Shown: one piece after another, positions 3,428 to 43,400 of the stretch
How positions within the stretch are numbered: the stretch's first letter is position 1
Layout: each line of letters opens with the position of its first letter
Origin: Escherichia coli
Lineage (GTDB): Bacteria > Pseudomonadota > Gammaproteobacteria > Enterobacterales > Enterobacteriaceae
Assembly (NCBI RefSeq): GCF_011045215.1
Contig: NZ_CP049201.1
DNA: 64,000 bases
Strand: one strand, 5' to 3'
The notes under the pieces: model-generated
What the model was told of the DNA's origin: nothing
Databases searched by the model: none
What the model saw: the letters and a program-made list of their open reading frames with translations, nothing else
Translations under genes and position numbers: made by a program

Positions 3428-3515
3428 GGTGAGGTGTCCGAGTGGCTGAAGGAGCACGCCTGGAAAGTGTGTATACGGCAACGTATCGGGGGTTCGAATC
3501 CCCCCCTCACCGCCA
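3428..3515 (+). tRNA. serX: tRNA-Ser (anticodon GGA), serX
   Basis: 88-nt sequence GGTGAGGTGTCCGAGTGGCTGAAGGAGCACGCCTGGAAAGTGTGTATACGGCAACGTATCGGGGGTTCGAATCCCCCCCTCACCGCCA with long variable arm and CCA end; K-12 synteny between ghrA and ycdU. Confidence 0.95.
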
Positions 3516-5709: not shown

Positions 5710-6084
5710 TTATGAGGTGGTTGCGGGTGCCAGTGTCGAATAAACAGCCATATAAACGTAACCACAGCTGCCGAGGGTGTCGGCTTCGCAGGTCAGCCCT
5801 CTGGCATACAGCGTGACGGTATGCTGATGGCGGGGATTCAGTTCACCGCTGGTGAGCATGAGTTCCAGTTGTTTCATCAGCAGCGGAAAGGCCTGGTCCA
5901 GATGGTACGCATCCGCGTCGCTGAACCGGCCTCTGATACCGGCGCGGTCTGCAAGGTAATGCAACCGGTTACCCTCCTGCACCAGACGTGCTCCGAAACA
6001 AGGTGTCACGGTACAGGGCAGTCCCCACCAGGGGCGGCCGCGATTGTCGTCGGGATGAGTTGTCTCATGGAGTGTGTCTGACAC
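5710..6084 (-). CDS. cbeA: CbeA/YeeU-family antitoxin
   Basis: 124-aa ORF MSDTL...RPWWGLPCTVTPCFGARLVQEGNRLHYLADRAGIRG... matches YeeU/YafW/YfjZ family. Confidence 0.85.
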   Translation of the reverse strand: MSDTLHETTHPDDNRGRPWWGLPCTVTPCFGARLVQEGNRLHYLADRAGIRGRFSDADAYHLDQAFPLLMKQLELMLTSGELNPRHQHTVTLYARGLTCEADTLGSCGYVYMAVYSTLAPATTS

Positions 6085-14628: not shown

Positions 14629-14845
14629 CAGCTTTTCCTTACAGAGGGTGAATAAAAAAGCCGGTACCCACAAATGTGGATACCGGCAGGTACAAAACAG
14701 CATGGTCAGATAAAGTGGTTTTTCCCGGACATAAATGCTTCCCCTCTCTCATCCGCCAGAGAAGTATCAGTCCGTTGTGTGCAATTCCGTTCTGCATGAT
14801 GAAGAGATTCAGCTGCCTTTTCGCAGGCCATTAACCACTACAAAC

Positions 14846-14881
14846 GATCGATACTAACGATCGATACCTGTTTTATCGATC
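14846..14881 (-). promoter_or_regulatory. Three clustered GATC sites: agn43-type Dam/OxyR phase-variation switch
   Basis: aaacGATCGATactaacGATCGATacctgttttatcGATCGtttta about 220 bp upstream of the flu start; GATC at 14846, 14859, 14878. Confidence 0.75.
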
Positions 14882-14999
14882 GTTTTATTCTATTGATAGC
14901 AGGGCAGTCACGCAAGAGAAACAGGAGGGTATGAGGGGTTTGTATCATGTTTTCAGTTGGTTAACGCAATGTAATCAGGCATTTCCCCTGGCAGAGTGT

Positions 15000-22100: not shown

Positions 22101-22757
22101 ATGGCTTATGATTACAGCGCCAGCCTCAACCCGCAAAAAGCTCTGATCTGGCGTATCGTCCATCGGGACAATATCCCGTGGATTCTGGATAACGGGCTGC
22201 ACTGCGGCAACAGTCTGGTGCAGGCGGAAAACTGGATCAATATCGGCAACCCGGAGCTGATCGGCAAGCGTGCCGGGCATCCGGTACCTGTCGGAACGGG
22301 CGGGACACTGCATGACTATGTGCCGTTTTATTTTACCCCCTTCTCGCCAATGCTGATGAACATCCACAGCGGGCGCGGCGGCATTAAGCAACGCCCCAAT
22401 GAGGAGATCGTTATTCTGGTCAGCAACTTGCGGAACGTGGCAGCACACGACGTGCCCTTCGTGTTTACCGACAGCCATGCTTACTATAACTGGACCAACT
22501 ACTACACCAGTCTGAATAGTCTGGACCAGATCGACTGGCCCATTTTGCAGGCACGGGACTTTCGCCGCGATCCAGACGATCCGGCTAAATTTGAACGCTA
22601 TCAGGCAGAGGCGCTAATCTGGCAACACTGCCCGATCTCTCTGCTGGATGGGATAATTTGTTACAGCGAAGAGGTCAGGTTACAATTAGAGCAATGGCTG
22701 TTTCAGCGTAATCTAACAATGTCCGTTCACACACGGGCTGGATGGTACTTCTCATGA
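22101..22757 (+). CDS. darT: DarT-like DNA ADP-ribosyltransferase toxin (DUF4433)
   Basis: 218-aa ORF immediately followed by a macrodomain gene with overlapping stop/start; family call from recalled DUF4433 features. Confidence 0.7.
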
Positions 22758-23821
22758 TCACATATACACAAGGCAATTTACTGGACGCACCGGTGGAAGC
22801 TCTGGTGAATACGGTTAATACCGTCGGTGTCATGGGGAAAGGCATCGCGTTGATGTTTAAAGAGCGCTTCCCCGAAAATATGAAAGTCTATGCCCTCGCT
22901 TGCAAACAAAAGCAGGTGATCACCGGCAAAATGTTCATTACCGAAACCGGGGAACTGATGGGACCGCGCTGGATTGTTAATTTTCCGACCAAACAGCACT
23001 GGCGCGCTGATTCCCGCATGGAGTGGATTGAAGATGGCTTGCAGGACTTACGCCGCTTTTTGATTGAAGAGAACGTGCAGTCCATCGCCATTCCACCACT
23101 GGGCGCAGGCAACGGTGGTTTGAACTGGCCGGACGTTCGGGCGCAGATTGAATCTGCCCTTGGCGACCTTCAGGACGTTGATATCCTGATTTACCAACCG
23201 ACTGAAAAATACCAGAACGTTGCCAAAAGCACTGGCGTAAAAAAGCTCACTCCCGCCAGAGCCGCCATCGCTGAACTGGTGCGTCGCTACTGGGTATTGG
23301 GGATGGAGTGCAGCCTACTGGAAATCCAGAAACTGGCCTGGCTGTTACAACGCGCCATTGAGCAGCATCAACAGGACGATATCCTCAAACTGCGGTTTGA
23401 AGCTCACTATTATGGCCCCTATGCGCCCAATCTGAACCATCTGCTTAATGCGCTGGACGGCACCTATCTAAAAGCCGAGAAACGCATCCCGGACAGCCAA
23501 CCGCTGGATGTGATCTGGTTTAACGATCAAAAAAAAGAACACGTTAATGCGTATCTGAACAACGAAGCCAGAGAGTGGCTACCTGCGCTGGAGCAGGTCA
23601 GCCAGTTAATTGACGGCTTTGAATCGCCGTTTGGTCTGGAGTTGCTGGCAACCGTAGACTGGTTGCTGAGCCGTGGCGAATGTCAACCAACGCTGGATTC
23701 CGTTAAGGAAGGACTGCACCAGTGGCCTGCGGGCGAACGCTGGGCCAGCCGTAAGTTGAGGCTGTTTGATAATAATAATCTGCAATTTGCCATTAACCGC
23801 GTAATGGAGTTCCATTGCTGA
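22754..23821 (+). CDS. darG: DarG-like macrodomain antitoxin
   Basis: N-terminal macrodomain signature ([36 protein letters not shown]) plus C-terminal extension; ATG overlaps darT TGA; alternative in-frame ATG at 22742. Confidence 0.75.
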
Positions 23822-26800: not shown

Positions 26801-26935
26801 AAAAGGGCAGAGTGGATTGGCGATCGTTTTAAAGAACGGGAAATTGCCAACGCATTACGTGAAGAGACCGCCAGCTATAATATTGATATTGATGAGGTGA
26901 TAGCGCTTGCCCGTCAGCAGAAGGAATATCACTGA
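23840..26935 (+). CDS. hsdR: Type I restriction endonuclease subunit HsdR (1031 aa)
   Basis: SF2 helicase motifs (HTQGSGKSLTM Walker A, VFVDECHR DEAH-box); TTG start 7 nt after AAGGAG. Confidence 0.9.
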   Translation: MSTVGQRERATQQRLIQFFVEDLGYRHLSHRTGYTGNSNIDTNILSAWLKRRGVNDTLITRALRQLDSAAALGEGKKLYYANKEVYRLLRYGVKDKEGAGEQNQTVWLIDWANPQANDFAIADEVTVKGEYCKRPDLVLYVNGIALGVIELKRSSVHVSEGIRQNLDNQKKTFIRDFFTTMQLVMAGNDTQGLRYGTIETPEKYYLEWKEDNPGDYTHKLDFHLSRLCSKSRLLDIVHNYIVFDVGVKKLCRHNQFFGVEAAKQHIARREGGIIWHTQGSGKSLTMVWLAKWIRENVPNSRVLIVTDRTELDEQIESVFMGVNEDIYRTSSGNDLIATLNHPNPWLICSLVHKFGCRSEAEDNAATDAFITELQQSLTKTFRAKGDLFVFVDECHRTQSGKLHNAMTAILPDALFIGFTGTPLMKKDKKKSVEVFGPYIHTYKFDEAVADGVVLDLRYEARDIDQYLTSEKKVDDWFEAKTRGLSNLARTQLKQKWGSMQKLLSSKSRLEQIVNDILLDMDTRPRLMDGRGNAMLVCSSIYQACKVYEMFSQTELAGKVAIVTSYRPDAASIKGEETGEGLTEKLSKHATYRKMLADYFEQSEEKAAARITEFEREVKQRFIEEPGQMRLLIVVDKLLTGFDAPSATYLYIDKTMTDHTLFQAICRVNRLDGEDKEYGYIIDYKDLFRSLDKAITDYTTGAFDDYDRDDVAGLLKDRLEQAQLDLDSALEMVRSLCEPVKTPRSLQDYQHYFCGKSGENQTSLNEKEALRLTFYQCVARLLRAYASIANEMPEAGYTAEEVESIRAEVAEFEKLRYEIKLTSGDLLDMKRFEPAMRHLLDMYVRADGSEVLMDFEELSLIELIVEKGLAATVALPDDIRNNQDAMAETIENNVRKTIVDENPVNPKYYGRMSQLLDELITLRRQNALNYQQYLERIRDLCKQVIRPEQTAGACYPATMDTQAKRAFYDNFGHDEVLATRIDTTIRYTKRAEWIGDRFKEREIANALREETASYNIDIDEVIALARQQKEYH

Positions 26936-27651
26936 TGCCAATCATGCAAATAGGCTCGTTACACTTGCTGGTCAACCGTAAGGCGATTAAGAATCTGCAT
27001 ATCAGCGTGCTGCCGCCTGATGGCAAAGTCCGCGTTTCAGCGCCGGAACATATGACGGAGACGGCGATTCGTATGGCGGTTGCTTCACGCTTTCGCTGGA
27101 TCAGAAAACAGCAGCAGGATTTCGCCAGACAGCCTCGTCAATCAGAGAGGGAAATGGTCAGCGGAGAGTGCCACTATCTTTGGGGCCGAAGATATCGCCT
27201 ACTTGTGATTGAGCGTCACGGGCGTCACGAAGTAAAAGTTGCGGGAAATAATAAGCTCCAGCTTTATGTTCAACCGGGAACCCGTGATGAAAATAAGGCA
27301 TTGGCGTTAAGTGAATTTTATCGACATGAACTAAAACAGCAGGTGGCTAAGCTTCTACCTGAATGGCAAGACCGAATCGGTGTTCCCCTAACATTCTGGG
27401 GCATCAAAAAGATGAAAACCTTTTGGGGCACCTGTAACACTACAACAAAACGAATCTGGCTCAATCTGGAGCTAATTAAGAAGCCGCCGGAGTGTCTGGA
27501 GTATATTCTGGTGCATGAACTGGTTCATCTTCTGGAACGTCACCATAATGCTCGCTTCCGGTTGCATATGGATCGGTTTATTCCTGACTGGCGTGAGCGT
27601 CGGGATTTGTTAAATAATATGCCGTTAGCGTTTGAGGCATGGGAGTATTGA
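26935..27651 (+). CDS. M48/DUF45 (YgjP-like) zinc metallopeptidase-fold protein
   Basis: HEXXH motif (HELVHLLERHH); ATG overlaps hsdR stop. Confidence 0.75.
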   Translation: MPIMQIGSLHLLVNRKAIKNLHISVLPPDGKVRVSAPEHMTETAIRMAVASRFRWIRKQQQDFARQPRQSEREMVSGECHYLWGRRYRLLVIERHGRHEVKVAGNNKLQLYVQPGTRDENKALALSEFYRHELKQQVAKLLPEWQDRIGVPLTFWGIKKMKTFWGTCNTTTKRIWLNLELIKKPPECLEYILVHELVHLLERHHNARFRLHMDRFIPDWRERRDLLNNMPLAFEAWEY

Positions 27652-27907
27652 TTGAGCCTGTAACTGTTTTTTGTCCATAAATTAACCTTCATTTGATGCT
27701 GGATAGAACATATCAAAATCAGACAATTACACAAATCTATGTACAGGCTCAACTCCTGCCATGGAACGTAGTACTCACCAATAAGTAAGCATCAATACGG
27801 CGCTCCGTTAACGCTTACTAGCATGGTTATCTCCTTAAAAAATTGAGGCGACAACTATGCTGACACAGGGGGTTACTCACCGATCTCCTTCACGGTAATA
27901 CGCAGTT

Positions 27908-28024
27908 CTTCAGAACCCGCCTCCGATACCAGCCTGGCGGTCGCCCCGGCGCAAGCAAAATAAATCGACCATTGTCAGACTGCGATCGTTCGGATGCCCC
28001 GCCACCGACGCATCAGTATGAGTT
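27908..28024. repeat. Direct repeat copy A (~117 bp), partner at 36875..37003
   Basis: cttcagaacccgcctccgataccagcctggcg...gcaagcaaaataaatc.accattgtcagactgcgatc shared with copy B at ~88% identity by eye. Confidence 0.7.
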
Positions 28025-28258
28025 AACCGAAACGATACAAAATTGCCTGAGAATCATTACGCTGGCTGATGGAAGGCACACCAAAAGCCTCTGCACAGAA
28101 CGATGTTCGGCAACAACAGAAACATGATTGCGTTCATGGCAATAGTCATTCGTACCGTTACAGGCGGTATTGATTTATTACAGACAAGCGGTACATATAT
28201 GTACCGCTTGGTTAAGTAAAAAAACAGATATGAACGCTATTATGTTCATTCTACTTTA

Positions 28259-28816
28259 TTAAAAGCGATAACCCACGCCAATATTGAATCCATTAATGGA
28301 ATAATTATCGCCAAGTTTTGCTCTGGTTCCTTCATATCCGGCATTAATTGTAATATTACTTGTCGGATTGATCATTACCCCGGCAGCATAAGCAAAAGAT
28401 GTGGATTTTTTCGAAATATTTTCTCTGGCGAAATAACCATCAACGTTTGTCCATGCTGTTTTACCATCAGCTTTAACATGCGCCACGCCGCCAGCCGCAT
28501 ACAGTGACATATAATCGTTAATGCGCCATACGGGGCCGGTCAGTAAGGAATAATATTTTGCATCAACCTGGTTTTTAATTGAATCGCCATATGAATGATA
28601 TTCCTGATTACCATCCCCTTTCATCCAGGAGAAACTGCCCATAATACTGACCGGGGAGTCCCATTCATACCTGTACTGCAGGTTTACCCCTCTAATATTC
28701 TTGAAGTTCTGAATTTTACTCTGTGCATAACCGACAGAAAACGAATGGTTGTCAGCCAGCACGGAACCGCTTGCCACTGATAATATGATGGCTGAAAGAA
28801 CTGACAGTTTTTTCAT
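28259..28816 (-). CDS. Ail/Lom/OmpX-family outer-membrane beta-barrel protein
   Basis: Signal peptide MKKLSVLSAIILSVASGSVLA, alternating amphipathic strands, C-terminal ...NIGVGYRF aromatic terminus. Confidence 0.8.
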   Translation of the reverse strand: MKKLSVLSAIILSVASGSVLADNHSFSVGYAQSKIQNFKNIRGVNLQYRYEWDSPVSIMGSFSWMKGDGNQEYHSYGDSIKNQVDAKYYSLLTGPVWRINDYMSLYAAGGVAHVKADGKTAWTNVDGYFARENISKKSTSFAYAAGVMINPTSNITINAGYEGTRAKLGDNYSINGFNIGVGYRF

Positions 28817-29081
28817 TTTATTATCTCCATTGTTAATGAGAGTTATTTGATGAAATAATGATGCTAATATTTCTATCTGATGTCAATCACTCTGAGGGTG
28901 GTTGATACGTCAGAGGAACAACAGCTACATTAATATGCTATTTCAACCGGTTATCAGCATTAATTACAGCATACTTGTTCTGAATATCTCCGCATTCACG
29001 ATCAGCTTTACGACAGACAGTCATTTCTCTGTCAAAAGCATGTACCTCGTCGTAGCTGAGGTAGTTATTCTCAACAACATT

Positions 29082-29315
29082 TCAGAACCCCTTAACTTTC
29101 ATGATATGCAACAAACCAATACCCAAGCCTAAGATCCCCCCCCCATACACACTCATTTTTAACAGTCTAGAAAACTGAAAAACTTCAAATGATATTGGGG
29201 CATTCAAATAAAAATACATAAATATCTTCAGAAGAAGATAAAAAATCGAACCGACTATAAACAAACCAAATATGCATACAGTCATTAATAAGACAACAAT
29301 AAGAAGGTTCTTCAT
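29082..29315 (-). CDS. Orphan CdiI-like immunity protein (77 aa, two predicted TM helices)
   Basis: Small hydrophobic ORF overlapping the stop of the orphan cdiA-CT by 4 nt. Confidence 0.6.
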
Positions 29316-30343
29316 TTCCCAGCCTCCATTGCATCTTTCTTTTTCTGGATAATGGAGCTTCCAAACTCAGATGATAAACTACCACCCGCATTACCCACAG
29401 CACCAGGGATCTTACTCGGTACCATTTCTTTAGATAGACCTAACTGCCCTTTAACTTCAGTATATTTTAGTAGAGTCGGATCGAATTTAGGATTCCAGCC
29501 ACCGGTTATCCATTTACCGATTGTATTTGCAGCAGGCTTGACCACATAATTGCCAACCCCATATCCAAACCCGGCCCCCGCTCCATTTGTAATCGCCCCA
29601 GTAAGAGGATCATCTCCGTTTATGGCGTTGGTTAATGCTCCACCTGCCGCATTCCAGGCTATTGTCCCTTTCCAGCCCTGCCCCATGGTGATTACATTGA
29701 CCCATCCTGCAATGATTGCATTTTCAGGATCAACTGAACTATCTACCATGTAACCAATTCCTGCATTTGCACCTGTGCCAAGAGCCCACATGGCCTGAGC
29801 ACCGCCAGGTAAGAGAGCTACACTACCAGTGGCCAACGCTCCGGCATACGCTTTATTGACTGCTTCTCCTCGCTTACAGGCTTCACCGCCTGGGGCATCG
29901 TTACAGGAAAGTACATCTGCGCCATGCGTCTGAGCAGCTTTGCTCTGCTCGGACTCTGTGCCACCAACCAAGTTATTCTCAGCAATGTTCTTCCCAACAC
30001 CAGCCCCTGCAGCCGCGCCAGCCACATCGCCACTGGCAATGCCGCCAGCCATACCCGCTGACAGCGTTGCCAGCGTGCTTATCGTCTGCTTCTGCTCTTC
30101 ACTGAGGTCTGACTGTTTCACGCCCGGATACAGCATTCCGATCGCTCTGGCTGCCAGCTCTCCCGTTGCTGCGCCTGCTGCACCAGCAGCAACATTATTA
30201 CTCTGCATTGCCGCTACTGCACCGCCCAGAATGGCGTGAGCAATGGCCTTTACTGCCGGGTCTTTTTCTGTTGATTTCAGCAGGTATGCCAGTTCCGGAG
30301 CCGAAGCTCCCGCCAGTACTGCACCAACGTCACCACCTGCCAG
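29312..30343 (-). pseudogene. Orphan cdiA-CT fragment (pretoxin/VENN-like region plus glycine-rich C-terminal toxin domain), 5'-truncated
   Basis: Translation upstream of the annotated ATG continues as ...[53 protein letters not shown]..., homologous to the CdiA 37491..46565 pretoxin region ([13 protein letters not shown]...VENN); preceded by an in-frame stop at 30344. Confidence 0.75.
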
Positions 30344-31048
30344 CTATGGCTGGAGATGGTGGATGTTACCGATAATCAAGAAGCCTTAGATATAAGGCAA
30401 TGTTTTATCTTTCTTTCATACGAAAACCAGTGCTGCCATACTAGCCCTTTTCCTGTGACATCTAAGCGAGCTCATGTTTATCGGGAAGGGTGTTAGATCA
30501 TTGTTAATCATACACAGGTAATTATGCAGCGGTTATGCATAACTTCATTTCGAGCGTGTGATAACGCCAACACAATCACCAGAATTATAAAATAAAATCA
30601 CAAAACCTGAGAACATGTCACATTTTATCACATTAATAATTTTTCTTTATGATTTCATAACTATTTACAGCCTTTTATTAAGCCAAAAAAAGTTAAATTG
30701 CAATTATTGCATAATTATTCGCGCTACAGTTTTTTTACTTTTAAAATCATATAATATATAATCACCTTAAAACAGCAAACTCCACAAAATAATAACAAAT
30801 AGAAATATTTCCACCCAAATAATGATTATCTATTCATGAGCTGACATTATGAAATTAATCATTATTTGATGCAAATAACACAAATTAAAACAAACACCTT
30901 AATATCCATTCTTGTGTGAATCTCATCACAATAATGTTTATTTTACCGCCTAGTATGAACCACGAAATCAATTGAACTTAGCCGCCATGAAATTAAATAC
31001 ACAACATGGCGCATACCTTTTTATTCTGAAAAAATTAAAGGAATAATT

Positions 31049-32269
31049 ATGGAAAAGCATTACGTCGGTTCTGAAATTGGTCAATTGCGTAGTGTTATGC
31101 TGCACCGCCCAAATTTAAGTCTGAAACGTTTGACACCATCGAATTGTCAGGAACTGCTTTTCGATGATGTACTCTCGGTTGAACGGGCAGGTGAAGAGCA
31201 TGACATCTTCGCAAATACGCTGCGCGATCAGGGGGTGGAAGTCCTGCTGTTAACAGACCTCCTGACACAAACCCTTGATATTAAAGAAGCGAAAACCTGG
31301 CTACTGGAGACGCAAATTTCTGACTACCGCCTCGGACCTACCTTTGCGGGCGATGTGCGCAGCTGGCTGGCGGACATGCCGCACCGTGAACTGGCGCGAA
31401 GATTAAGCGGCGGATTAACTTACGGTGAAATTCCGGCTGCCATTAACAATATGGTGGTGGATACCCACACGTCTAATGACTTTATTATGAAGCCGCTACC
31501 GAATCATTTATTTACCCGCGATACCTCCTGCTGGATTTATAACGGTGTTTCTATTAACCCGATGGCCAAACCAGCCCGTCAACGTGAAACCAATAACCTC
31601 CGGGCAATATATCGCTGGCACCCGGCATTTGCCGACGGCGATTTTATTAAGTATTTCGGCGACGAAAATATTTATTACGACCACGCCACTTTGGAAGGTG
31701 GCGACGTATTAGTGATTGGTCGTGGGGCGGTATTGATCGGCATGTCTGAACGCACAACACCGCAGGGCGTGGAGTTCCTCGCCAACAGCCTGTTCAAACA
31801 TCGTCAGGCCGAGCGAGTGATCGCCGTTGAGCTGCCAAAACACCGCTCCTGTATGCACCTTGACACCGTCATGACCCACATCGACGTTGACACTTTCTCC
31901 GTTTACCCGGAAGTGGTGCGCAAAGACGCCCAGTGCTGGACGCTCACTTCGAACGGACGCGATGGCCTACAACGGACCCAGGAAACCGACCTGTTGCACG
32001 CCATCGAGAAAGCACTCGGTATTGACCAGGTACGCTTGATCACCACCGGCGGCGACGCCTTTGAAGCCGAACGTGAGCAGTGGAACGACGCCAATAACGT
32101 TCTGACCATCCGCCCCGGTGTGGTGATTGGTTACGAGCGCAACGTCTGGACTAACGAGAAATACGACAAAGCCGGCATCACCGTGCTGCCCATCCCGGGG
32201 GACGAATTGGGACGAGGCCGCGGCGGCGCACGCTGCATGAGCTGTCCGCTTGAACGCGACGGAATTTAA
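31049..32269 (+). CDS. arcA: Arginine deiminase
   Basis: 406-aa [31 protein letters not shown]... typical ADI N-terminus; RBS aaaggaataattATG. Confidence 0.9.
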
Positions 32270-32279
32270 AGGAGCCATC

Positions 32280-33191
32280 ATGGAACGAAAACCCACTTTG
32301 GTTGTGGCGTTGGGCGGCAACGCATTATTGAAGCGCGGCGAACCACTGGAAGCAGAAATCCAGCGCCAGAACATTGAGTTGGCCGCCCGTACCATCGCCG
32401 GGCTCACGGTGAATTGGCGCGTGGTGTTGGTTCACGGCAACGGTCCACAGATCGGGCTGCTGGCGCTGCAGAACAGCGCCTACGACAAAGTAACCCCTTA
32501 TCCACTGGACGTTCTTGGCGCCGAAAGCCAGGGGATGATCGGCTACATGCTCCAGCAGGCGCTGAAAAACAGCCTGCCACAGCGTGAGGTGAGCGTCCTG
32601 CTTACTCAGGTGGAAGTGGACGCTACTGACCCGGCGTTCAGCAACCCGACCAAATATATCGGACCGGTGTACAACGAAGACCTGGCAAAAACACTGGCAG
32701 CAGAAAAAGGTTGGGGGTTTAAGGCCGACGGCAGCTACTTCCGTCGCGTGGTGCCATCTCCACAGCCGAAACGCATTGTCGAGAGCGATGCTATTACGGC
32801 ACTGATCCAGCGCGACCATCTTGTTATCTGCAACGGCGGCGGTGGTGTGCCAGTTGTGGAAAAGGCTAACGGCTATCGCGGAATTGAGGCGGTGATCGAC
32901 AAAGACCTCTCTGCTGCCCTGCTGGCATACCAGATAGGGGCCGACGCACTACTGATTCTCACTGATGCCGACGCGGTTTACCTCGATTGGGGCAAACCGA
33001 CCCAGCGTCCGCTAGCGCAGGTGACGCCAGAACTGCTCAGAGGCATGCAGTTTGACACCGGATCGATGGGGCCGAAAGTGGCCGCCTGCTGCAAGTTTGT
33101 TGAAGCTTGCAACGGTATTGCCGGGATCGGCGCTCTGGTCGACGGGGCTGAGATTTTGGCGGGCAAGAAAGGCACATTGATTCGTAACTGA
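32280..33191 (+). CDS. arcC: Carbamate kinase
   Basis: MERKPTLVVALGGNALLKRGE... carbamate kinase N-terminal motif; six-frame ORF extends 10 codons upstream. Confidence 0.9.
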   Translation: MERKPTLVVALGGNALLKRGEPLEAEIQRQNIELAARTIAGLTVNWRVVLVHGNGPQIGLLALQNSAYDKVTPYPLDVLGAESQGMIGYMLQQALKNSLPQREVSVLLTQVEVDATDPAFSNPTKYIGPVYNEDLAKTLAAEKGWGFKADGSYFRRVVPSPQPKRIVESDAITALIQRDHLVICNGGGGVPVVEKANGYRGIEAVIDKDLSAALLAYQIGADALLILTDADAVYLDWGKPTQRPLAQVTPELLRGMQFDTGSMGPKVAACCKFVEACNGIAGIGALVDGAEILAGKKGTLIRN

Positions 33192-33275
33192 ATCCCCCTT
33201 CACCTAACCCTCTCCTCAAAGGGGAGATGGCAGAGTGAGGGCATCAGACAGTTAAAATTTAAAAAGGATTTCCTA

Positions 33276-34280
33276 ATGACCATCAATTTGAAAAAACGCA
33301 ACTTCCTTAAACTGCTGGACTACACCCCGGCAGAGATCCAGTACCTGATCGATCTCGCGATCAAACTGAAAGCGGCCAAAAAAGCCGGACGAGAAAAACA
33401 GACCTTGGTTGGCAAAAACATTGCCCTGATTTTTGAAAAAACCTCCACCCGTACCCGCTGTGCTTTCGAAGTGGCTGCGTTCGACCAGGGGGCGCAGGTG
33501 ACCTACCTCGGCCCAGGCGGATCGCAAATCGGCCATAAAGAGTCAATGAAAGACACCGCCCGTGTGCTGGGCCGTATGTATGACGGCATCGAATACCGTG
33601 GTTACGGTCAGGCCATCGTTGAGGAGTTGGGCAAATACGCGGGCGTACCGGTGTGGAACGGTCTGACCGACGAATTTCACCCAACCCAAATCCTCGCAGA
33701 TTTGATGACCATGCTGGAACATTCCCCGGGCAAAAAACTGTCGGAACTGAGCTTTGCCTACCTTGGCGACGCACGCAACAACATGGGTAACTCCCTGATG
33801 GTGGGGGCTGCCAAAATGGGGATGGATATCCGTCTTGTAGCCCCAAAATCCTTCTGGCCGGATGTGGTGCTTGTTGAACAGTGCCGTTCCATCGCGGAAG
33901 AGACGGGCGCACGTATCACCCTGACCGATGACGTGGAAGAAGGCGTGTGGGGAACGGATTTCCTCTACACCGATGTTTGGGTCTCCATGGGTGAACCGAA
34001 AGAGGCGTGGACCGAACGCGTCAGCCTGATGAAGCCTTATCAAATCAACGCTGACGTGATGAACGCCACCGGCAACCCGAACGTCAAGTTCATGCACTGC
34101 CTGCCAGCCTTCCACAATGAGCACACCAAAGTGGGCCGAGAAATTGAGATGGCATACGGCCTGAAGGGACTGGAGGTGACGGAAGAGGTCTTCGAATCCC
34201 CTAACTCTATCGTCTTTGATGAAGCAGAAAACCGCATGCATACCATTAAAGCGGTCATGGTGGCGACACTCGGCGACTAA
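33276..34280 (+). CDS. arcB: Ornithine carbamoyltransferase (catabolic)
   Basis: STRTR carbamoyl-phosphate binding motif and HCLP motif. Confidence 0.9.
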
Positions 34281-34327
34281 TCACCACCCGGTGCGTCGTA
34301 GGGTGCACCGGGTCTCAGGAGAACATC

Positions 34328-35731
34328 ATGGGTAAGTTCAAATTTCCCTCCGCATATACCATTCTCTTTTTTCTGATTGCCATCGTTGCCGTCCTGACGT
34401 GGATCATTCCAGCCGGGCAGTATCACATGGCAATGAACGAAGCTCTCGGCAAGGAGGTTCCTGTTGCCGGCACCTATGCACACGTAGAGGCCAATCCGCA
34501 GGGACTGATTTCAGTGCTGATGGCCCCAATTGCCGGGTTGTATGATCCAGACTCCGGTCAGGCTAGGGCGATAGACGTTGCGCTGTTTATTCTGATCATC
34601 GGAGGATTCCTCGGGATCGTCACCAAAACCGGGGCCATTGACGCCGGAATCGAGCGCGTCACCACCCGACTACGTGGTCGCGAAGAGTGGATGATCCCGA
34701 TCCTTATGGCGCTGTTTGCTGCTGGCGGTACAATTTACGGCATGGCCGAAGAATCCCTGCCGTTTTATACCCTGCTGGTGCCGGTGATGTTGGCAGCACG
34801 CTTCGACCCTGTGGTAGCCGCCTCCACCGTGCTGCTCGGCGCCGGGATCGGCACGCTCGGTTCCACCATTAACCCTTTCGCGACGGTGATCGCCGCCAAT
34901 GCAGCCGGGATCCCCTTCACCAACGGTATCACCTTGCGTGTGGTGGTGCTTGTCATCGGCTGGATAATCTGCGTGACATGGGTGATGCGCTATGCCCGGA
35001 AAGTTCGCAAGGAGCCGTCTCTCTCCATTATTGCGGATAAACAAGAGGAGAACCTCGCCCACTTCCTCGGCAATAAAAGCGAACAGGCTCTGGAGTTCAC
35101 CCCGGTACGCAAAATTATTCTGGTGATTTTCGCCCTTACCTTCGCGGTCATGATCTACGGCGTGGCGGTGCTGGGTTGGTGGATGGCGGAGATCTCAACG
35201 GTATTTCTGGCCAGCGCAATTATCATCGGCCTGATCGCCCGCATGAGCGAAGAGGAACTGACCTCTACCTTTATCAACGGCGCGCGAGATTTGCTGGGCG
35301 TTGCACTGATTATCGGTATCGCGCGCGGTATCGTAGTGATCATGGATAAAGGTATGATTACCCATACTATTTTGCACTACGCCGAGGGAATGGTTACTGG
35401 ATTATCGACAGTAGCATTCATCAACGTGATGTATTGGCTGGAAGTGGTGCTGTCGTTTCTTGTGCCTTCTTCGTCCGGTCTGGCCGTTCTGACGATGCCG
35501 ATCATGGCACCTCTTGCCGACTTCGCTAACGTCAACCGCGACCTGGTAGTTACGGCTTACCAGTCTGCGTCCGGTATCGTTAACCTGATCACTCCCACCT
35601 CTGCCGTTGTGATGGGCGGACTGGCTATCGCCCACGTGCCTTACGTGCGATATCTGAAATGGGTTGCGCCGCTGCTTGGGATATTAACAGTGGTAATTAT
35701 GGTGGCATTAAGTCTGGGGGCATTGTTGTAA
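34328..35731 (+). CDS. YfcC-family membrane transporter (putative arginine/ornithine antiporter of the ADI operon)
   Basis: 467-aa polytopic membrane protein, co-directional and immediately downstream of arcB. Confidence 0.7.
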   Translation: MGKFKFPSAYTILFFLIAIVAVLTWIIPAGQYHMAMNEALGKEVPVAGTYAHVEANPQGLISVLMAPIAGLYDPDSGQARAIDVALFILIIGGFLGIVTKTGAIDAGIERVTTRLRGREEWMIPILMALFAAGGTIYGMAEESLPFYTLLVPVMLAARFDPVVAASTVLLGAGIGTLGSTINPFATVIAANAAGIPFTNGITLRVVVLVIGWIICVTWVMRYARKVRKEPSLSIIADKQEENLAHFLGNKSEQALEFTPVRKIILVIFALTFAVMIYGVAVLGWWMAEISTVFLASAIIIGLIARMSEEELTSTFINGARDLLGVALIIGIARGIVVIMDKGMITHTILHYAEGMVTGLSTVAFINVMYWLEVVLSFLVPSSSGLAVLTMPIMAPLADFANVNRDLVVTAYQSASGIVNLITPTSAVVMGGLAIAHVPYVRYLKWVAPLLGILTVVIMVALSLGALL

Positions 35732-35811
35732 TTTGCCGGATGGCGCTGCCCCTATCCGGTCTACGGAATGGTGTGGTGTCACCGGTTATTTCGAGAACTG
35801 AATATAGGATT

Positions 35812-36291
35812 ATGATGGATTACGAAGATTTCTCTCCCAAAGAGCAACTACAGCTAACGGTCTGCCAACGTCTGATTGCAGAAAAGAGCTATTTTTCCCA
35901 AGAGGAGCTCCGCCGCGACTTACAGGAGCGTGGTTTTGAGACAATCAGCCAGTCCACCGTTTCTCGTCTGCTCAAGTTGTTAGGTGTCATAAAAATTCGA
36001 AATGCCAAAGGGCTAAAAGTCTATTCGCAGAATCCACAGTTGCGTCCGGCTCCTGATGCCGCGCGCACTGTGTCCGAAATGGTGGTGAGCGTTGAGCACA
36101 ATAGAGAATTTATCCTTATCCATACCGTTGCTGGATATGGCCGCGCAGTGGCACGTGTCCTTGATTATCACCAGTTGCCAGAAATTTTAGGCGTGGTGGC
36201 CGGAAGCAGTATCGTCTGGGTCGCTCCTCGGATGGTGAAGCGTGTCGCTCTGGTGCATAAGCAAATTAATTATTTACTAAGAACGTATTAA
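35812..36291 (+). CDS. argR: ArgR-family arginine-responsive repressor
   Basis: 159 aa from MMDYEDFSPKEQLQLTVCQRLIAEKSYFSQEELRRDLQERGFETISQSTVSRLLK... winged-helix N-terminus plus C-terminal oligomerisation domain. Confidence 0.8.
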   Translation: MMDYEDFSPKEQLQLTVCQRLIAEKSYFSQEELRRDLQERGFETISQSTVSRLLKLLGVIKIRNAKGLKVYSQNPQLRPAPDAARTVSEMVVSVEHNREFILIHTVAGYGRAVARVLDYHQLPEILGVVAGSSIVWVAPRMVKRVALVHKQINYLLRTY

Positions 36292-36538
36292 TATTCACAA
36301 ATGCCCGCTTGTATTGACTAATACATACATTAAATCGCTTCATTCGCAAAGCGAGTTTCCTATAATGCCTGATAATGTGCCAGGAGGGAGCATAGTCAAG
36401 CGTGTACGATATAACGTCTCACCGCGTCTGAAATCAGACACTGGCTTGGTGTTTTATTCCCGTTGCTTAATCTATTCCTTGGGTCCCTCATTTGAGGGGC
36501 TTTTTTTGCTCGGCATCAGGAGATAAACATGAATCCGT

Positions 36539-36688
36539 TTTATCAAAAAATAAATGCCCCTAGCCGCGAAGTGCTGGAGCTCGTTCTAAAAATCGCAGCA
36601 AAAATTGAAAACCATTCCTCAACCATCGCGGCGTTCGTATGCGCCGCCAATGATGCGCCCGAAAACGCGTCAATATGAGTTCGCCGGA
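36539..36688 (+). CDS. Small ORF (49 aa, MNPFYQKINAPSREVLELVLKIAAKIENHSS...) with strong RBS; speculative
   Basis: aggagataaacATG; its 3' end is the sequence that is repeated at 36946..37016 and 27975..28024. Confidence 0.25.
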
Positions 36689-36874
36689 ATATTACTCTGC
36701 TGTCGGGAGTTGAACGCCTGACGACAGGAAATGAGCCAGGCCAGCCACCACGCGGGCTGACAGCGAATCAGAACCTGAGTCAGCCCGGAGCCATTCCCGG
36801 GGCTGCACTTCATCACCTGCCACCAGTACCCGTGTCAGTACTTCGCGACCTGACGCAATTATCCGACTCAGTCC

Positions 36875-37003
36875 TTCAGAACCCGCCTCCGATACCAGCC
36901 TGGCGCTCGCCCCTGCGCAAGCAAAATAAATCAACCATTGTCAGACTGCGATCATTCGTATGCACCGCCGATGACGCGCCCGAAAACGCGTCAATATGAG
37001 TTC
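36875..37003. repeat. Direct repeat copy B, partner at 27908..28024; embedded in a block of sub-repeats (36655..37040)
   Basis: Same sequence as copy A; cgcccgaaaacgcgtcaatatgagttcgccggaatattac occurs at 36655 and 36975, with tatgagttcgccggaatattac again at 37021. Confidence 0.7.
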
Positions 37004-37064
37004 GCCGGAATATTACTCAATATGAGTTCGCCGGAATATTACGCCTAGCTGGGGGTTTTCTGTG

Positions 37065-37095
37065 CACAAAAAAATCCCGGCATAATGGCCGGGAT
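37065..37095 (-). terminator. Rho-independent terminator after cdiI (end of cdiBCAI operon)
   Basis: Hairpin atcccggc-ataatg-gccgggat preceded on plus strand by A-run (T-run on the transcribed minus strand). Confidence 0.6.
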
Positions 37096-37110
37096 TTGCG
37101 AGCTTTCCCA

Positions 37111-37485
37111 CTATTTCTTGATTCCTAAACGGAACATATCAGTTGGGAATAAAGGTTGTATTATCACTTCATCATTAAAAATGAATAATTTGGGCGATAA
37201 AGCTGTTACGTCATAGATATTTTCAGCGATTAATCTTAGATTTGACCTAAAAACTGGAATACTTGCATCATCTACAAAGACAAACATGTCATCGTTTTTT
37301 ACAGAGTTTGCACACAATAGCTCATCAAAACTCTCATAATCAGAATGCCAGATCTCTGACCAAGTAACACTTCCTTTCGCGAGAGGGTACTTATTTAAAA
37401 TGCCCAGAGCCTCCTGCTGAGCCAGCCCCTCTACTATATTAAAATCAGCACTCAGTGCTTCCCGACACTCATCAAATAAAGTCAT
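37111..37485 (-). CDS. cdiI: CdiI immunity protein cognate to the CdiA C-terminal toxin
   Basis: 124-aa ORF starting 6 nt after the cdiA stop; AT-rich relative to cdiA. Confidence 0.7.
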   Translation of the reverse strand: MTLFDECREALSADFNIVEGLAQQEALGILNKYPLAKGSVTWSEIWHSDYESFDELLCANSVKNDDMFVFVDDASIPVFRSNLRLIAENIYDVTALSPKLFIFNDEVIIQPLFPTDMFRLGIKK

Positions 37486-37490
37486 TTGCT

Positions 37491-40400
37491 CTACCTGTTT
37501 AGCTGTTTCAATATTGTTTCAAAAGACTTTTCATTGCCTTCAAAAGGTATGACTTGCTTCACCGCTTTTCCAGGGCCTTTACCCTGCGAGTAATCCCATA
37601 TATTGATGTGTGTGCCTTTTTCAGGATCATAATCAACACGCCAACCAACTTTTCCGTCGCTGGATTGCCGCCCTATGACTTTCCCATTACCAGCGCTGAC
37701 TTCCAAACGTCCGATAACTGGCTTAGAGTCCGCTCCTAAATTACCTACAAGATCCAATGCCTTGTTTCGAGCAGTTTCCCAGTTTTTCTCTGGCTTGAGG
37801 ATTTGTTCAATTTTAGGCTGGGAATTCCCTTTAACCTTACTAATTCCCCCAAATGCTGACGCCGCAGCGCTCGCGACTATTCCCGCCTGAACTTCATCCA
37901 AACCGTATTCTTCTTGGAGTGCTTCCGAGACTTTGTTGGTCGCGACAACCCCTTCAGCCTGCATTTGCTGCGCAAAAGTCGCCGTCAGATCGTAGACCAT
38001 TTTGATCGGGATATCTTCACCCAGAGCACGATCTATTGCCTGCTTCACCGCCAGACTGTCAGTCAGTACATCACCGTATTTCTGCTGGCAGGTTGCCGGG
38101 CTGGCTGCACAGTCACTGATCAGTTGCTTTTGCTGTGCCGTACTCAACTCTTCGTACTTTTTGATAATACCGCCGCAGTCACCGCCTTTCGCCTGACAGG
38201 ACTTCATTTCAGCGGACCAAGCATCTATCTGCTTACTGCTCAGATAGTTATTCTCAACAGTTGTCTTACCTGACTGTGCGCCGGCTACCGCTGAAGCCCC
38301 CGAGTCTCCCACCAGACCACCGGCCAGGCCGGCAGCAACCGTTGCCAGTGTCGAGACCGTCTGCTTCTCTGTCTCGCTCAGTTCACTCACCGGCTTACCG
38401 TACATCTGTGTGGCTATCATTCCCACCACCTCGCCGGTGGCTGCACCTGCAGCACCGGCAAGGGCATTCTTACCCTGTGCCAGAGACAGGGCGGCATTCA
38501 CTACTGCATGAGCTGCCACACGCCCCGCACCGTCCGGGGTGGTCTGTTTGATAATTTCAGCAATATACGGCGCTGCACCACCTGCCAGGGCTGCACTCAG
38601 ATTACCGCCGGCCAGTCCCTGTACCGCTGCCGTTGCGGCCTGTATCGCCTGCTGGTATTTGCCTCCCGTTCCAAAACCGGAGGCTGCCATACCGTTATTG
38701 TAGGCCCGCTGTGCCACATCCTGTTCCGTGTACGGTTTTCCTGCTGCCTCAAGCTCTGCGCGGGCCTGATTCAGTGCTGCCGGGTCCCGCTTCGCTTTCT
38801 CACCGGCTATCTGTCCTTCCGTTCTGGCAATATCTGCCACCTGGTTACCAATCTCACCAATGAGTTGCGCCTGCTGCAACCGCTGCTGCTCTTTTTCCCT
38901 GTCAAAGATGGGGGACAGCGTCTGGTTTGCATGCGCAACGTCACGGTTCAGGTCTGCCACATCCTGTTTCTGGCTCTGTGTATCCCGGATAGTGATATTC
39001 CCGGCAGACACAGCCGACTGCGTGGTACTGTCCGCATGGCCTTCATGATTTGCACCGACCAGCAGATTGTTTGCCATGTTCCCCAGGAAATTTCCGGCAA
39101 CACTGCCACCGGTACTGAGCCCTGCACTCTGATGTTCCGTTTTAAAGTCAGCCCGGTTTTCAGTGTCACTGAAGCCCAGTGTGCCGGTATCCAGCCTGTT
39201 TTTATCTGCCGTTGCCGTGGACGCAATCACCGCACCGTTCAGTTGCGTATGCTGTCCGGTGGTGACATCAAACCCGCCCCTGCCGGCAAAAATCCCCGTC
39301 TGCTCCTGTACACTGTCGTAGTTACTGTGCATTTTATCCCGGCTGAGGTTCACACTCGCCGAACCGCTCATGGACCCGAAAGTGAAGCTGCCTCCGGCGC
39401 TGGCATTCTGCTGCTTACTGTCATAACGGTCACTGTCCTGCTCACTGGTCAGTGTCAGATGACGACCGGCATCCACTTTCACCGTTTCACCGCCAGCCTG
39501 CGCGCCGGTAAGCGTGGTGTCCCGCCCGCTGATAATGGTCAGCCGGTTTCCCGCATCCACCGTGGTTTCTGTATGGGTGGTACCGTTGCCTTTTTCACTG
39601 CCCTTACCCTGGTTTGCGCTGGCTGACAGACTGAAACCAGGCCCTCCGGGCCCCACACCGATACCGACACCCACGCTGCCACCACTGGATGTGTTCTTTC
39701 CTTCCAGCTTTGACGTGTTTTCTGCTGATACCAGATTCACGTCACGGTTTGCCTGCAGCAGAACGTTGTTCCCGGCCTTTATCTGACCGCCCTGTATCGT
39801 CAGGTCACCATCCACGCCCTTCACGCCGGAGCCGGTGGCCTGAATACTGAGGTTATTACCTGCGGTCAGTGTACTGCCCTTCGCCACCGTCTGCTCTGAC
39901 TGCTGTTCTGATTTCGAAGACTGGCTGCCGTAAGAGAGGCTGATACCCACGGTATTGTTATTCTCTTTCTGGTTGCCCTGTGCTTCTGCCAGTCGTCCGG
40001 CCTGCACGGCCTGAGCCCCCGAGAGCGCGGCCTTCACCCCCTGCAGGGCTTCAAGCCGGCTGTTTCCGGCAGATTTCGCCGCCTGTACGGTCTCCACCGT
40101 CGTGTTCAGGGCGCTGCCCGCTGTGCCGGACAGGGCAAGCGTCAGACCGGAGGTTTTCTGCTCCACCGTATGTGTCTGCACATGCCGGTCAGTGGCGGCG
40201 GTAATGCTGACCTCCTTACCACTGAGTGCCATGTCCCTGCCGGCAATCAGGTCAGAGCCGTTGACGGTCAACCGGTTACCTGCCTGAAGGGAAACATCAC
40301 CGTGAACACTCCCCACCGTGCTGCCTTTCTGCGTGGTGTCTGTTGCGGTGTCCGTGACCTTCAGACTCTGGCTGCCCACGCTGAATCCCACACCTCCGGA

Positions 40401-43400
40401 GCTCATCAGTCCGGATTTTTTCTCCTGTTTCAGGTGTGTTTCACGGTTGCTTTCTGTCAGCGTTCCGATACTCAGGTTATTTCCGGCAGCCAGGGAGACA
40501 CGGTTATCCCCGGCCACACTGCTGCCCGTGACGTTCAGATTATGTCCGGCACCGATACTGACCGTATCCCCGTTCAGTTCACTGCCCGTCATGGTCCGGC
40601 GGTCAGTGACATCATGCGTGGTAGTGGTGGTTTTCGATAACATCCCGCTGTTGCCGGTCACTTTATGGTATTCATCCAGCGAGCGGGTATTCTGTGCACC
40701 GGTCAGCGTCACGTCATGACCCGCCATCAGGGCCAGGCCTTTCTGAGCTGACAGCGATGCCGCCTGTGACGTCATATCCCGTCCGGCGGTCAGCGTGACA
40801 TCACCGTTACCGGCAAGTGTGCTGCCCGTATTCTGTGTGACGCCCTGCGACAGACGATTATTTTTATCCCAGGTAATATTGTCCTGCGCGGATGTGGTCA
40901 CCGTGGAAAGCGTCATATCCCTGCCGGCACTGAGTTGTGTCAGGCTGTCCTTACCCTGATTCACCACCGTTGCCGCCGTCAGATTCATATCCCGTCCGGC
41001 CTGCAGCACCAGTCTTCCCTGGTCGTTCTGCACATACACGCCGGCCACACTGTCGATACTGGTACGTTCAAAATGGTTCTGCCCGGCGTCGCGCTGTGCC
41101 GTACGGGTGGTGGTGGTCAGACTGATATCCCGTCCGGCCATCGCCAGCAGGCTGTCCGTGGCCTGCAGCAGCCCGCCGGTACTGTTAATATCCGTCCGGG
41201 CCGTCAGGCTGACATTTGCTCCCTGAATGGTGCCGGCCTGGTTGTGAATGTTTTCTGCACTGAGCTGCACGGCCTGCTTCCCGGCCAGTTTACCGCTGTT
41301 AAACAGGTCACCATCCAGCTTCATCACCATGTCCCTGCCGGCAATCAGCGCACCGGCACTGTTCACATCACCGGGTTTTACACGGGCATACACCTGAGGT
41401 ACCTGAACCGTCTGCGTGCTGCCGTCCGGCAGTGTCACCGTGGTGTTAACCAGCCAGACAATATCACCGGTCAGTAACGCCATCTGCTCAGCAGTCAGCG
41501 CCACACCTGGTGTCAGGTTGTATTGCTTACCAAATGCAATACCCGCATCCATTAACGCCTTAAACTGCTCTTCATCATTACTGTATCCGTCCAGGTACCG
41601 TTGCCCGGTCAGAGCGACAACCTGCTCACGAATCAGACGCTGTTCGTAAAAACCATCCCCCAGGCGTTTGAGCATGTTATCCCCGTTCTGAGAAAACGCC
41701 TTCTGCATGTAATCACTGCCCAGCCACGTCTTCTGGTTCGTAAAACGCGGGTCCGTTTCAACCAGATATGGCACATTCACTGCCGGATTTGTTTTAAACA
41801 GGCTGCTGTCCGGCAGACGGGTATCCGGCCCGGCAACATGGATACTGCCCTGAGGTGCGCTGACTTCAAACTGCTGCCCCGGCAACAGAATGACCGGTTC
41901 ACCGGCTGACACCACCGGGCGAAGCGGTATCCGGTCAGTAACGGCTACTGTCGCATCCACATTTCCGGTCAGTCCTGTCTGTACATCCGTTCCCTGTGGC
42001 TTCAGGGGAGAAAGCGTGACCTGGCTGCCCTGAACCTGTCCGTGGCTGGTGAGCTCTCCCGGCTTCAGCGTGATGGTCTGAATGACGGGGGGCGGCTCGT
42101 AAGGGGAAATTCTTTCCCCCTGCCTGTCATTTTTATTTTTTCTTTTTATCCGGTAATAATATGTGGATGTCCCTTTATCAGTAACATGGCGCTCTCCGCT
42201 GACACTGACGTTTTCCACATCACCGGCCTGCATATCCAGCAGACCACCTGCAACCACCTGGCTCTTGTCATTAAGCAGTTTGTCTGCCACAACCGTCATG
42301 CCGGCACCGGACAGTATTTTCCCCGGGTCGGAGTCTTTTACCCGGGTTTCCTCCACGGTACGGGTGTATTCATATTTTGTGAACCGGTCGTTGTTATGTC
42401 CGGTATCATCCGGCGTGTTCAGGTTCAGCAGTCCATCAGAGGAGTTGTTATCAATGAACACCCCCTCATCTTTTGCATTCCAGCGGACATCTGACCCGCG
42501 ATGCTGATACTCAGTCACCTTTTCCGTGGAGACCACCACGCGCTCCGTGGTGAAATGGTCATTGACGTTATTGATTTGCCCGGCACTCAGTGTCAGGGAA
42601 CCGGCGGCTTCAATCGTGGCACTGTGATTATTCAGTACACCGGCTTTCCCCGTGGCGGCGCCATTCGCATCCAGCATGCCACCGATATGCATATCACCTG
42701 CACTGTAAATCAGGCTGTGCGTCCGGTTATTCAGGGTCTGTACCCCCAGGTCCACACGCTCACGTCCGGCCAGCGTCGCCGCCACGCCATTTTCATCCAG
42801 ATTATTAAATGTGGCAGCGCTGACACCAACAGCATCGCCGTAGATTCGCCCGGTACCGGAATTCGTCAGGGTGTTCGCCTGAAGATGCGTATATTTCCCG
42901 TCAATCAGCCCACGGTTCAGCAGTGTGTCCGTCACGTTAAGCCAGGTCTGCCCGGCACTGATTTCACCTTTCTCTGTGTTTTCAAGGCGGATGCTGTTCA
43001 GGTCAAGCCGGCTGCCTGCCAGCAGGCTGCCGGTATTAGAGACATCGCCATTAACGGAAAGCGTAAGGTTTCCGTTTGCAATGGTCTGACCACTGTTACT
43101 GAACGCTGTGTTACTTTTCAGCGTTATATCGCCCGGCGAAAGCAGTTTCCCGTCACCACCAAGCTGACCGACATCCACAGAGACTGACTGCCCGGCCTTA
43201 ACCACGCCGTCACGGTTCGAAAACGCCAGCTGACGGCCACTGACAGACAATGTCGCGCCGGAAGAGAGCACGCCATCATTATTACTGAGCGTCCTGTCTG
43301 CCATAACCGTAAGCGCCCTGTCTGCCAGAATACTGCCCTCCTGGTTATCAAGGTCCTGCGTCGTGATGTGTATTGTCTGCGCTTCCAGCCCCTGGCCGGT

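Follow-up and report, generated by a model that had tools for sequence, protein, structure and literature searches.

Positions 27900-37042 of a stretch of 64,000 nucleotides from the Escherichia coli contig NZ_CP049201.1 (assembly GCF_011045215.1), which we call the window, hold about 9 kb of DNA where a porin gene of the Ail/Lom family, an orphan toxin/immunity pair of the contact-dependent growth inhibition (CDI) type and an arginine deiminase (ADI) operon follow each other between two direct repeats. An earlier note on this DNA, made from the sequence alone, had listed the same gene content (porin, orphan CDI pair and arcA-arcC-arcB-transporter-argR), which protein families, open reading frames (ORFs) and annotated relatives all bear out, and had seen in the whole a mobile island reminiscent of the arginine-catabolic mobile elements (ACME) of other bacteria. 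Our analysis points to a more modest explanation. It is highly probable that the repeats are the dead right ends of an insertion sequence (IS) of the IS66 family, for which we use the working name ISx, and that the 9 kb form a mosaic of known cargo that is not mobile by itself and has been gained and lost through homologous recombination of the host.

A repeat search and a BLASTN comparison agreed on a direct repeat pair at 27900-28011 and 36866-36977, separated by 8,966 bp from start to start, with 101 of 112 positions identical (90%) in an ungapped alignment (E 5e-41). The longest perfect runs shared by the left (L) and right (R) copies are 32, 20 and 18 nt and, allowing for a single gap of 12-13 nt, the similarity extends to about 28036 and 37016, so that an inverted-repeat-like end is included in both copies. 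The repeats that had been described at 27908..28024 and 36875..37003 are thus real, and their significance held on proper alignment, but their positions were 8-9 nt off and an identity of 90% does not make them near-identical, as they had been called. Moreover, two further copies had been overlooked: a stretch of 64 nt at 36634-36697, which is 95% identical to 36955-37018, and an exact tandem copy of 26 nt at 37017-37042.

The origin of the repeat can be read from genomes where its neighbours are still intact. The full unit (36693-37016) is present in about 640 E. coli genomes and, wherever an intact neighbour is found (loci L004, L001, L008 and L013-L015), lies directly 3' of the stop codon of an IS66-family tnpC gene, with a left inverted repeat (IRL), GTAATGTTCCGGGGACCTCATCTTC, upstream of the tnpA that goes with it. 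We defined ISx from three intact copies in unrelated contexts (L013, L014 and L015), all of them 2,772 bp long from repeat to repeat and each bounded by its own perfect 8-bp target duplication (actttacc, tcttcagg and ataaatgc). The IRL is complementary at 20 of 25 positions to the right inverted repeat (IRR), which reads ...CAATATGAGTTCGCCGGAATATTAC, and the genes come in the order tnpA-tnpB-tnpC, followed by a tail of 360 nt that ends in the IRR. The ORFs of the L013 copy match the IS66 TnpA (E 1e-11), TnpB (E 3e-33) and transposase (E 9e-132) families, all above the curated NCBIfam cut-offs. A query of 2,724 bp, from tnpA into the tail, gave matches covering at least 80% of its length in 224 records (201 genomes), and every match among those listed, in chromosomes and several plasmids, was at least 98% identical over the full length. 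Because intact copies have inverted repeats, 8-bp duplications and IS66 ORFs, we identify the repeat unit as the right-hand tail of an authentic element of the IS66 family, and both repeats of the window are non-functional right-end relics of this one element, not attachment sites.

As in the IS66-family elements annotated in E. coli records (IS682, ISEc23 and ISCro1), ISx shows the tnpA-tnpB-tnpC order, terminal inverted repeats starting with GTAA and 8-bp duplications, whereas it carries no specific name in the NCBI annotation and its 360-nt tail after tnpC is unusually long. The window, on the other hand, keeps only dead right-end fragments of 324, ~137, 62 and 26 nt, with no genes and no left end: a comparison with ISx found neither its IRL nor tnpA, tnpB or tnpC in the 64 kb, and the search for a complete, potentially active copy returned only nt 2449-2772, 2622-2772 and 2710-2772 of the element plus the 26-nt copy of the IRR. 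A coding role of the repeat was also considered and dismissed, both candidate ORFs being regarded as non-genes: the 82-aa minus-strand ORF of the R copy has no NCBIfam match, and the 213-aa antisense ORF in the tail of intact ISx has no Pfam match. An Rfam scan of the whole window at gathering thresholds gave no match at the repeats, only a tRNA, IS102 RNA and STnc490, and folding of the intact tail (L013 2794-3153) gave an RNA fold z-score of -2.87. As a separate observation, the last 150 nt of the ISx tail occur as a tandem duplication in the tellurite-resistance island of O157 (L004 6166-6465).

The relics themselves have complex histories. The L copy is a three-part mosaic, in which 27906-27949 (44 nt) is identical to the type found at empty sites (see below), 27950-27975 (26 nt) matches the type of the R copy and of strain mip270_22, and 27976-28036 (61 nt) is identical to the ail-linked type of strains C5 and UMNF18; such a pattern points to crossover or gene conversion among ISx relics. 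The partial relic P, for its part, marks where the chromosomal ADI block ends on the right in other E. coli, and in most chromosomal copies homology ends at 36695. Two other elements left their ends at the left edge of the block (Table 1). The 33-mer at 27872-27904, at first suspected to be an IS66 end or a structured RNA, turned out to be the ISEc12 terminal repeat. A 201-nt query that includes it hit 2,320 E. coli genomes at 6,005 places, 834 of them plasmid-borne, and most of the listed matches cover the exact 33-mer alone.

Table 1. Features of the 9-kb block and its two flanks, with positions in the window.
Feature	Position	Strand	Remarks
M48 family metallopeptidase gene	26935..27651	+	Last gene of the type I restriction-modification/DarTG module; conserved left flank; 99.3-99.7% to EH031, O157 7636 and 2014C-4135, whose annotation gives it this name
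IS682/ISEc23-like IS66-family right-end relic	27751..27818	+	68 nt, IRR ...CGCTTAC; follows the M48 gene directly; 97% to the L008 copy of IS682 (nt 2467-2534)
ISEc12 (IS21 family) solo end relic	27872..27904	+	Terminal 33 nt; 100% to the ISEc12 end downstream of istB in L016 and L017
Left repeat (L)	27900..28036	+	Last ~150 nt of ISx (nt 2622-2772); 91.8% to nt 2622-2718; diverged IRR CAGTATGAGTTAACCGAAACGATAC
Ail/Lom family outer-membrane beta-barrel gene	28259..28816	-	NCBIfam PRK15240/OmpX-like, E 6e-45
77-aa ORF, putative orphan cdiI	29082..29315	-	Directly after the orphan toxin; assigned from position only
Orphan cdiA C-terminal (cdiA-CT) fragment	29312..30340	-	Frame open at the 5' end to 30340; PT-VENN (Pfam PF04829, E 1.3e-12), then a Gly-rich C-terminal domain
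ADI block	30341..36633	+	6.3 kb; Enterobacter-like chromosomal origin
arcA	31049-32269	+	Product in relatives WP_000410951.1 (ArcA)
arcC	32280-33191	+	Carbamate kinase in annotated relatives
argF/arcB	33276-34280	+	Ornithine carbamoyltransferase in annotated relatives
YfcC-type transporter gene	34328-35731	+	NCBIfam YfcC match; YfcC family protein in relatives
argR-like gene	35812-36291	+	NCBIfam ArgR match; arginine repressor in relatives
pyrL-like leader	36365-36526	+	Family match; with attenuator hairpin
pyrB' stub	36528-36633	+	Decayed 5' end, 106 bp; follows the pyrL-like leader
Partial relic (P)	36634..36695	+	Last 62-63 nt of ISx including the IRR; 92% to nt 2710-2772
Right repeat (R)	36693..37016	+	nt 2449-2772 of ISx (its last 324 nt), starting 37 nt past the tnpC stop and reaching to IRR CAATATGAGTTCGCCGGAATATTAC; 94.5%
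Extra IRR-end copy	37017..37042	+	26 nt, exact, in tandem after R
cdiI (right flank)	37111-37485	-	CDI immunity protein by annotation of L001 and L006
cdiA (right flank)	37491-46565	-	Annotated as cdiA in L001 and L006
cdiB	47118-48857		After cdiA; ShlB/FhaC-family transporter by annotation of L001 and L006

The comparison with related islands that lack the segment, already proposed in the earlier note, proved informative. In 31 complete E. coli genomes the same flanks are joined through one repeat copy, in an empty site where the M48 gene, the IS relics, the final ~150 nt of ISx in one copy, a terminator, cdiI and cdiA follow each other with nothing between. The string formed by the M48 gene, the IS682-like relic, the ISEc12 end and the start of the ISx relic is common to the window, EH031, O157:H7 7636 and 2014C-4135. 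Between the same flanks, 2014C-4135 has a partial copy of the repeat and then a whole ISx, itself hit by IS682 and with ISEc23 adjoining, and a fourth allele, in Z1323MEC0001, diverges right at the ISEc12 end. A microdeletion of 31 bp is common to 2014C-4135 and EH031, so that EH031 looks like a recombinational deletion of a state like that of 2014C-4135. The block is therefore a real presence/absence polymorphism, and the insertion/deletion at the repeats is real.

Direct repeats bracketing the block and empty sites with a single repeat in 31 genomes would both suit a site-specific mobile island of the ACME or staphylococcal cassette chromosome (SCC) type, with the repeats as attL and attR and a recombinase that cuts out and circularises the DNA between them. 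This explanation, however, fails on the features that define it. The repeats come from the tail of an IS66-family element, that is, internal sequence of an IS with proven inverted repeats and target duplications, and failed the test for an attachment site; they are only 90% identical and of mosaic ancestry. No integrase, recombinase or transposase gene was found in 27900-37042 when all ORFs of at least 60 aa were listed and searched against families, and the sense-strand genes of this interval comprise that of the outer-membrane protein, the toxin fragment and a small ORF, the five genes of the arc operon, and the pyrL leader. Moreover, the empty sites differ from the predicted excision product, and the block as a unit occurs nowhere else, its modules being found apart. 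We consequently give almost no credence to a site-specific island, and the idea of a discrete ACME-like element put forward in the earlier note has to be abandoned. The ACME of staphylococci is an SCC-type element, inserted by Ccr serine recombinases into the attachment site in orfX/rlmH. What both cases share is an arc operon on accessory, horizontally acquired DNA bounded by direct repeats, but here there is neither a recombinase nor an attachment site, the repeats are relics of an IS, and the arc genes have an enterobacterial chromosomal origin. The comparison is only an analogy, that of arc genes on accessory DNA, and what we have is no new mobile element but an ordinary, scar-flanked insertion/deletion of known cargo.

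Since the two flanks go back to one and the same IS and an IRR-like end is present in each, a composite transposon moved by the IS66-family transposase acting on flanking ISx copies was also contemplated, the more so as other strains have this region crowded with IS66-family elements and, in VTB97074v, the ADI block has a whole ISx-related copy beside it. Nevertheless, both relics represent right ends and point the same way, in a window without IRL, tnpA, tnpB or tnpC, and the IRR of the L copy has diverged. No 8-bp duplication surrounds the block, whose outer neighbours are the ISEc12 end relic on one side and the second, tandem IRR copy on the other. The junction between pyrB' and ISx, furthermore, falls inside the IS tail at a CAACC microhomology and not at an IS terminus, and none of the 5,426 complete E. 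coli genomes searched has the block between complete ISx elements with an 8-bp duplication. Altogether, such a transposon is very improbable.

The explanation that we favour would instead regard the 9 kb as a stack of three modules laid down at recombination scars: an ISx relic with the ail/lom gene, the orphan cdiA-CT/cdiI pair, and the ADI block. Each of the three occurs separately in other genomes and contexts. An Enterobacter-like piece of chromosome of 6.3 kb (arcA-arcC-argF-yfcC-argR-pyrL-pyrB') would have been joined to a truncated cdiA pretoxin fragment and to an ISx relic, and whether the site holds the block or lacks it would be the outcome of host homologous recombination, of the RecA type, between ISx relics and also, further to the right, in the cdi genes, with no dedicated recombinase involved. 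The stretch 30042-38259 of the window (ADI block, ISx relics, cdiI and cdiA-CT) is 99.9% identical to mip270_22, whose left side differs; target duplications were sought around the scrambled ISx copy of that strain and none was found. RecA-dependent recombination is subject to mismatch-repair editing, and an identity of 90% with short perfect runs predicts a low rate. The present copies could thus still recombine, although probably rarely (perfect runs of 32 nt at most).

A simpler variant of the same idea would have the block ancestral at the site and the empty alleles as its deletions by a single crossover between L and R. Empty alleles do hold one copy of the repeat, with the same left junction as the window (ISEc12 relic followed by TTCTTCAG...), and an analogous deletion, from a state like 2014C-4135 to one like EH031, is suggested by the shared microdeletion. 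However, the repeat of the empty alleles has variants present in neither copy of the window (CAG versus GCA, C versus T), and towards its 3' end the L copy is of the ail-linked type of unrelated loci, which fits better with import of the ail side by recombination than with local ancestry. Neither do the junctions agree: a synthetic L x R deletion junction was absent from the 5,426 genomes, its best full-length match reaching 92.9%, and to the right of the repeat the empty alleles read cttacgaaaaaacgtgtaaagctg..., where the window has the second IRR copy and then gcctagctggggg.... Given this different right-hand sequence, the empty alleles are not deletion products of this exact arrangement, and a simple L/R deletion from an ancestral block appears unlikely. 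Deletion by recombination between the repeats, as anticipated in the earlier note, was thus a reasonable expectation in view of a real insertion/deletion with single-copy sites in 31 genomes, but the exact junction expected from it does not appear.

The missing L x R junction and the differing right-hand sequence also weigh against the passive mosaic that we propose, for which at least one more event is needed to link the empty alleles with the window. To the same side of the balance we must add that the full filled arrangement of the window was found in none of the 5,426 genomes; that homologous recombination as the maker of the junctions is inferred from mosaic patterns and not observed; and that the change at this site could have been an insertion as well as a deletion. 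The proposed mosaic nevertheless offers a corrected annotation, in which the island becomes a passive mosaic bounded by tail fragments of an IS66-family element. As a discovery this matters little, given that direct repeats made of IS relics around insertions and deletions are routine inside genomic islands.

The largest of the three modules has a history of its own. The five genes of the ADI operon are predicted to be intact, with ORF coordinates and lengths as in annotated records that are 99.7-99.9% identical in DNA, and the operon is 99.0-100% identical at the nucleotide level to hundreds of E. coli records; for the block, the identity to E. coli chromosomes and IncF plasmids is 99.4-99.9%. 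It occurs in 364 of the 5,426 complete genomes, and plasmids account for 299 of its 366 places. The homology of the chromosomal copies spans 30054-36695, running from the cdiA pretoxin fragment as far as the outer limit of the P relic. In those chromosomes that were inspected, the block is found within or next to a cdi locus or the remains of one. A plasmid example is the IncF plasmid pSTN0717-20-1 (L012, 7984-15404), where the ADI block and the cdiA pretoxin fragment interrupt the FII repA gene; the left limit is the same as in the chromosomes, and the copy is cut after argR by a different IS66-family element. Since this plasmid block retains the cdiA pretoxin fragment, its sequence suggests that the plasmid copy derived from a chromosomal cdi locus.

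Where the operon was before it reached the cdi locus can be approached from its relatives. A scan for ArcA with one genome per species gave Enterobacter (96-97% amino acid identity) and Kosakonia as the closest, and 30341-36624 is collinear with Enterobacter cloacae DSM 26481 at 84.6% nucleotide identity, where pyrL and then pyrB, pyrI and ridA, all intact, come after argR (arc next to pyrLBI, L020 6080-7713). The presence of a pyrL-like leader and a pyrB stub after argR shows that the block was cut from a chromosome with arc next to pyrLBI, as in E. cloacae. Homology with that species starts exactly at the end of the cdiA fragment (30340/30341) and stops in pyrB at the CAACC shared with the ISx tail. 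From these comparisons the ADI block is a captured piece of an Enterobacter-like core chromosome, and 84.6% is too low for DSM 26481 itself to be the true donor. Its junctions look like illegitimate or homologous joins and not like the ends of a transposon.

The ADI operon is an already published accessory trait of E. coli. According to Billard-Pomares et al. 2019, as cited in PMC7055906 and PMC7671891, it is carried by IncF plasmids, pRCS57 among them, and occurs in ST131 clade C, and it is native to the chromosome of strain Nissle 1917 (PMC10659395). The published operon has arcA, arcC, arcB/argF, transporter and regulator in the identical order, and nothing differs inside it; only the neighbours do, which are here the ail/lom gene and this orphan toxin on the left, and an ISx relic and this cdiI on the right. 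A literature search returned nothing relevant linking ADI with cdiA or IS66 in E. coli, and the definition of the ADI junctions to the base pair, together with the idea of a single capture that follows, is not mentioned in the literature searched and may be new. These junctions lie at 30340/30341, with the cdiA fragment, and at about 36624-36634, where the IS tail begins inside the pyrB stub; the left one, common to chromosomal and plasmid copies, offers a simple marker for tracing the spread of this operon, which is related to fitness, between E. coli chromosomes and IncF plasmids.

A broader proposal, which we advance tentatively and hold to be about as open to doubt as to belief, is that all the accessory ADI copies of E. 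coli, chromosomal ones in CDI loci and those on IncF plasmids of extended-spectrum beta-lactamase lineages alike, might descend from one single capture. A piece of ~6.3 kb, from the argI-arcA spacer to pyrB', would have been joined once to a truncated cdiA and an IS66-family tail, and then spread by homologous recombination at both scars. If this were true, CDI orphan arrays would be platforms where not only toxins but also metabolic cargo can land and be exchanged.

As for the remaining modules, 27900-29139 (ISx relic and ail/lom) is 97-98.5% identical to the pheV island of UMNF18 and to the ends of cdi orphan arrays in C5 and 08-00022. The orphan CDI module has the features of such pairs: a 5'-truncated cdiA fragment with a VENN domain, a small ORF after it as putative immunity gene, and a location downstream of cdiBAI. 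Its cdiA-CT is ~87% identical in nucleotides to the 3' end, encoding the terminal toxin, of full-length cdiA genes in other strains; the 77-aa ORF had no family match in NCBIfam. Orphan cdiA-CT/cdiI arrays downstream of cdiBAI loci were reportedly described by Poole et al. in 2011. The window shares with arrays of this kind the truncated cdiA with VENN pretoxin and toxin domains, the small ORF, the position downstream of a complete cdiBAI and the interspersed IS fragments, but here a 6.3-kb metabolic operon and IS relics stand between the orphan and the main cdiI. Orphan toxin switching was considered as a route to both toxin replacement and deletion of the ADI block, and was rejected: at a threshold of E 1e-5 the orphan fragment showed no nucleotide homology to the resident cdiA, so that switching by recombination with the resident gene is not expected here.

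The right flank (37064-38260) is 99.7% identical to EH031, and the main cdiA is a mosaic with its breakpoint at the VENN boundary (38260): the C-terminal toxin and cdiI are 99.7-99.9% identical to EH031, mip270_22 and 2014C-4135, and the body of the gene upstream of this boundary resembles that of strain C5, at 94%. Immediately right of the tandem IRR copy, a stretch of 37 nt (37043-37079) recurs at 62800-62836 with 92% identity, including gcctagctgggggttttctgtgcac, beside the STnc490 small RNA gene (62691-62814, minus strand).

All these relics sit in what appears to be a genomic island at the tRNA-Ser gene serX, between a type I restriction-modification/DarTG/M48 module and the cdiBAI locus. 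The island takes up ~59 kb between serX (tRNA-Ser GGA, 3428-3515, beside ghrA) and ycdU. No second copy of the tRNA-Ser 3' end, as an island delimiter, was found within the window. The only integrase-like gene encodes a protein with a P4-type integrase domain (60731-61933), which lies at the ycdU end, adjoining STnc490, and not at the tRNA. Further to the left, the toxin-antitoxin pair DarT/DarG (a DNA ADP-ribosyltransferase and a glycohydrolase, 22101-23821) is embedded in the type I restriction-modification operon, with hsdS and hsdR on either side, and an autotransporter adhesin gene of the Ag43/Cah family (974 aa) occupies 11779-14883, with the IS102 RNA match immediately upstream (14647-14883).

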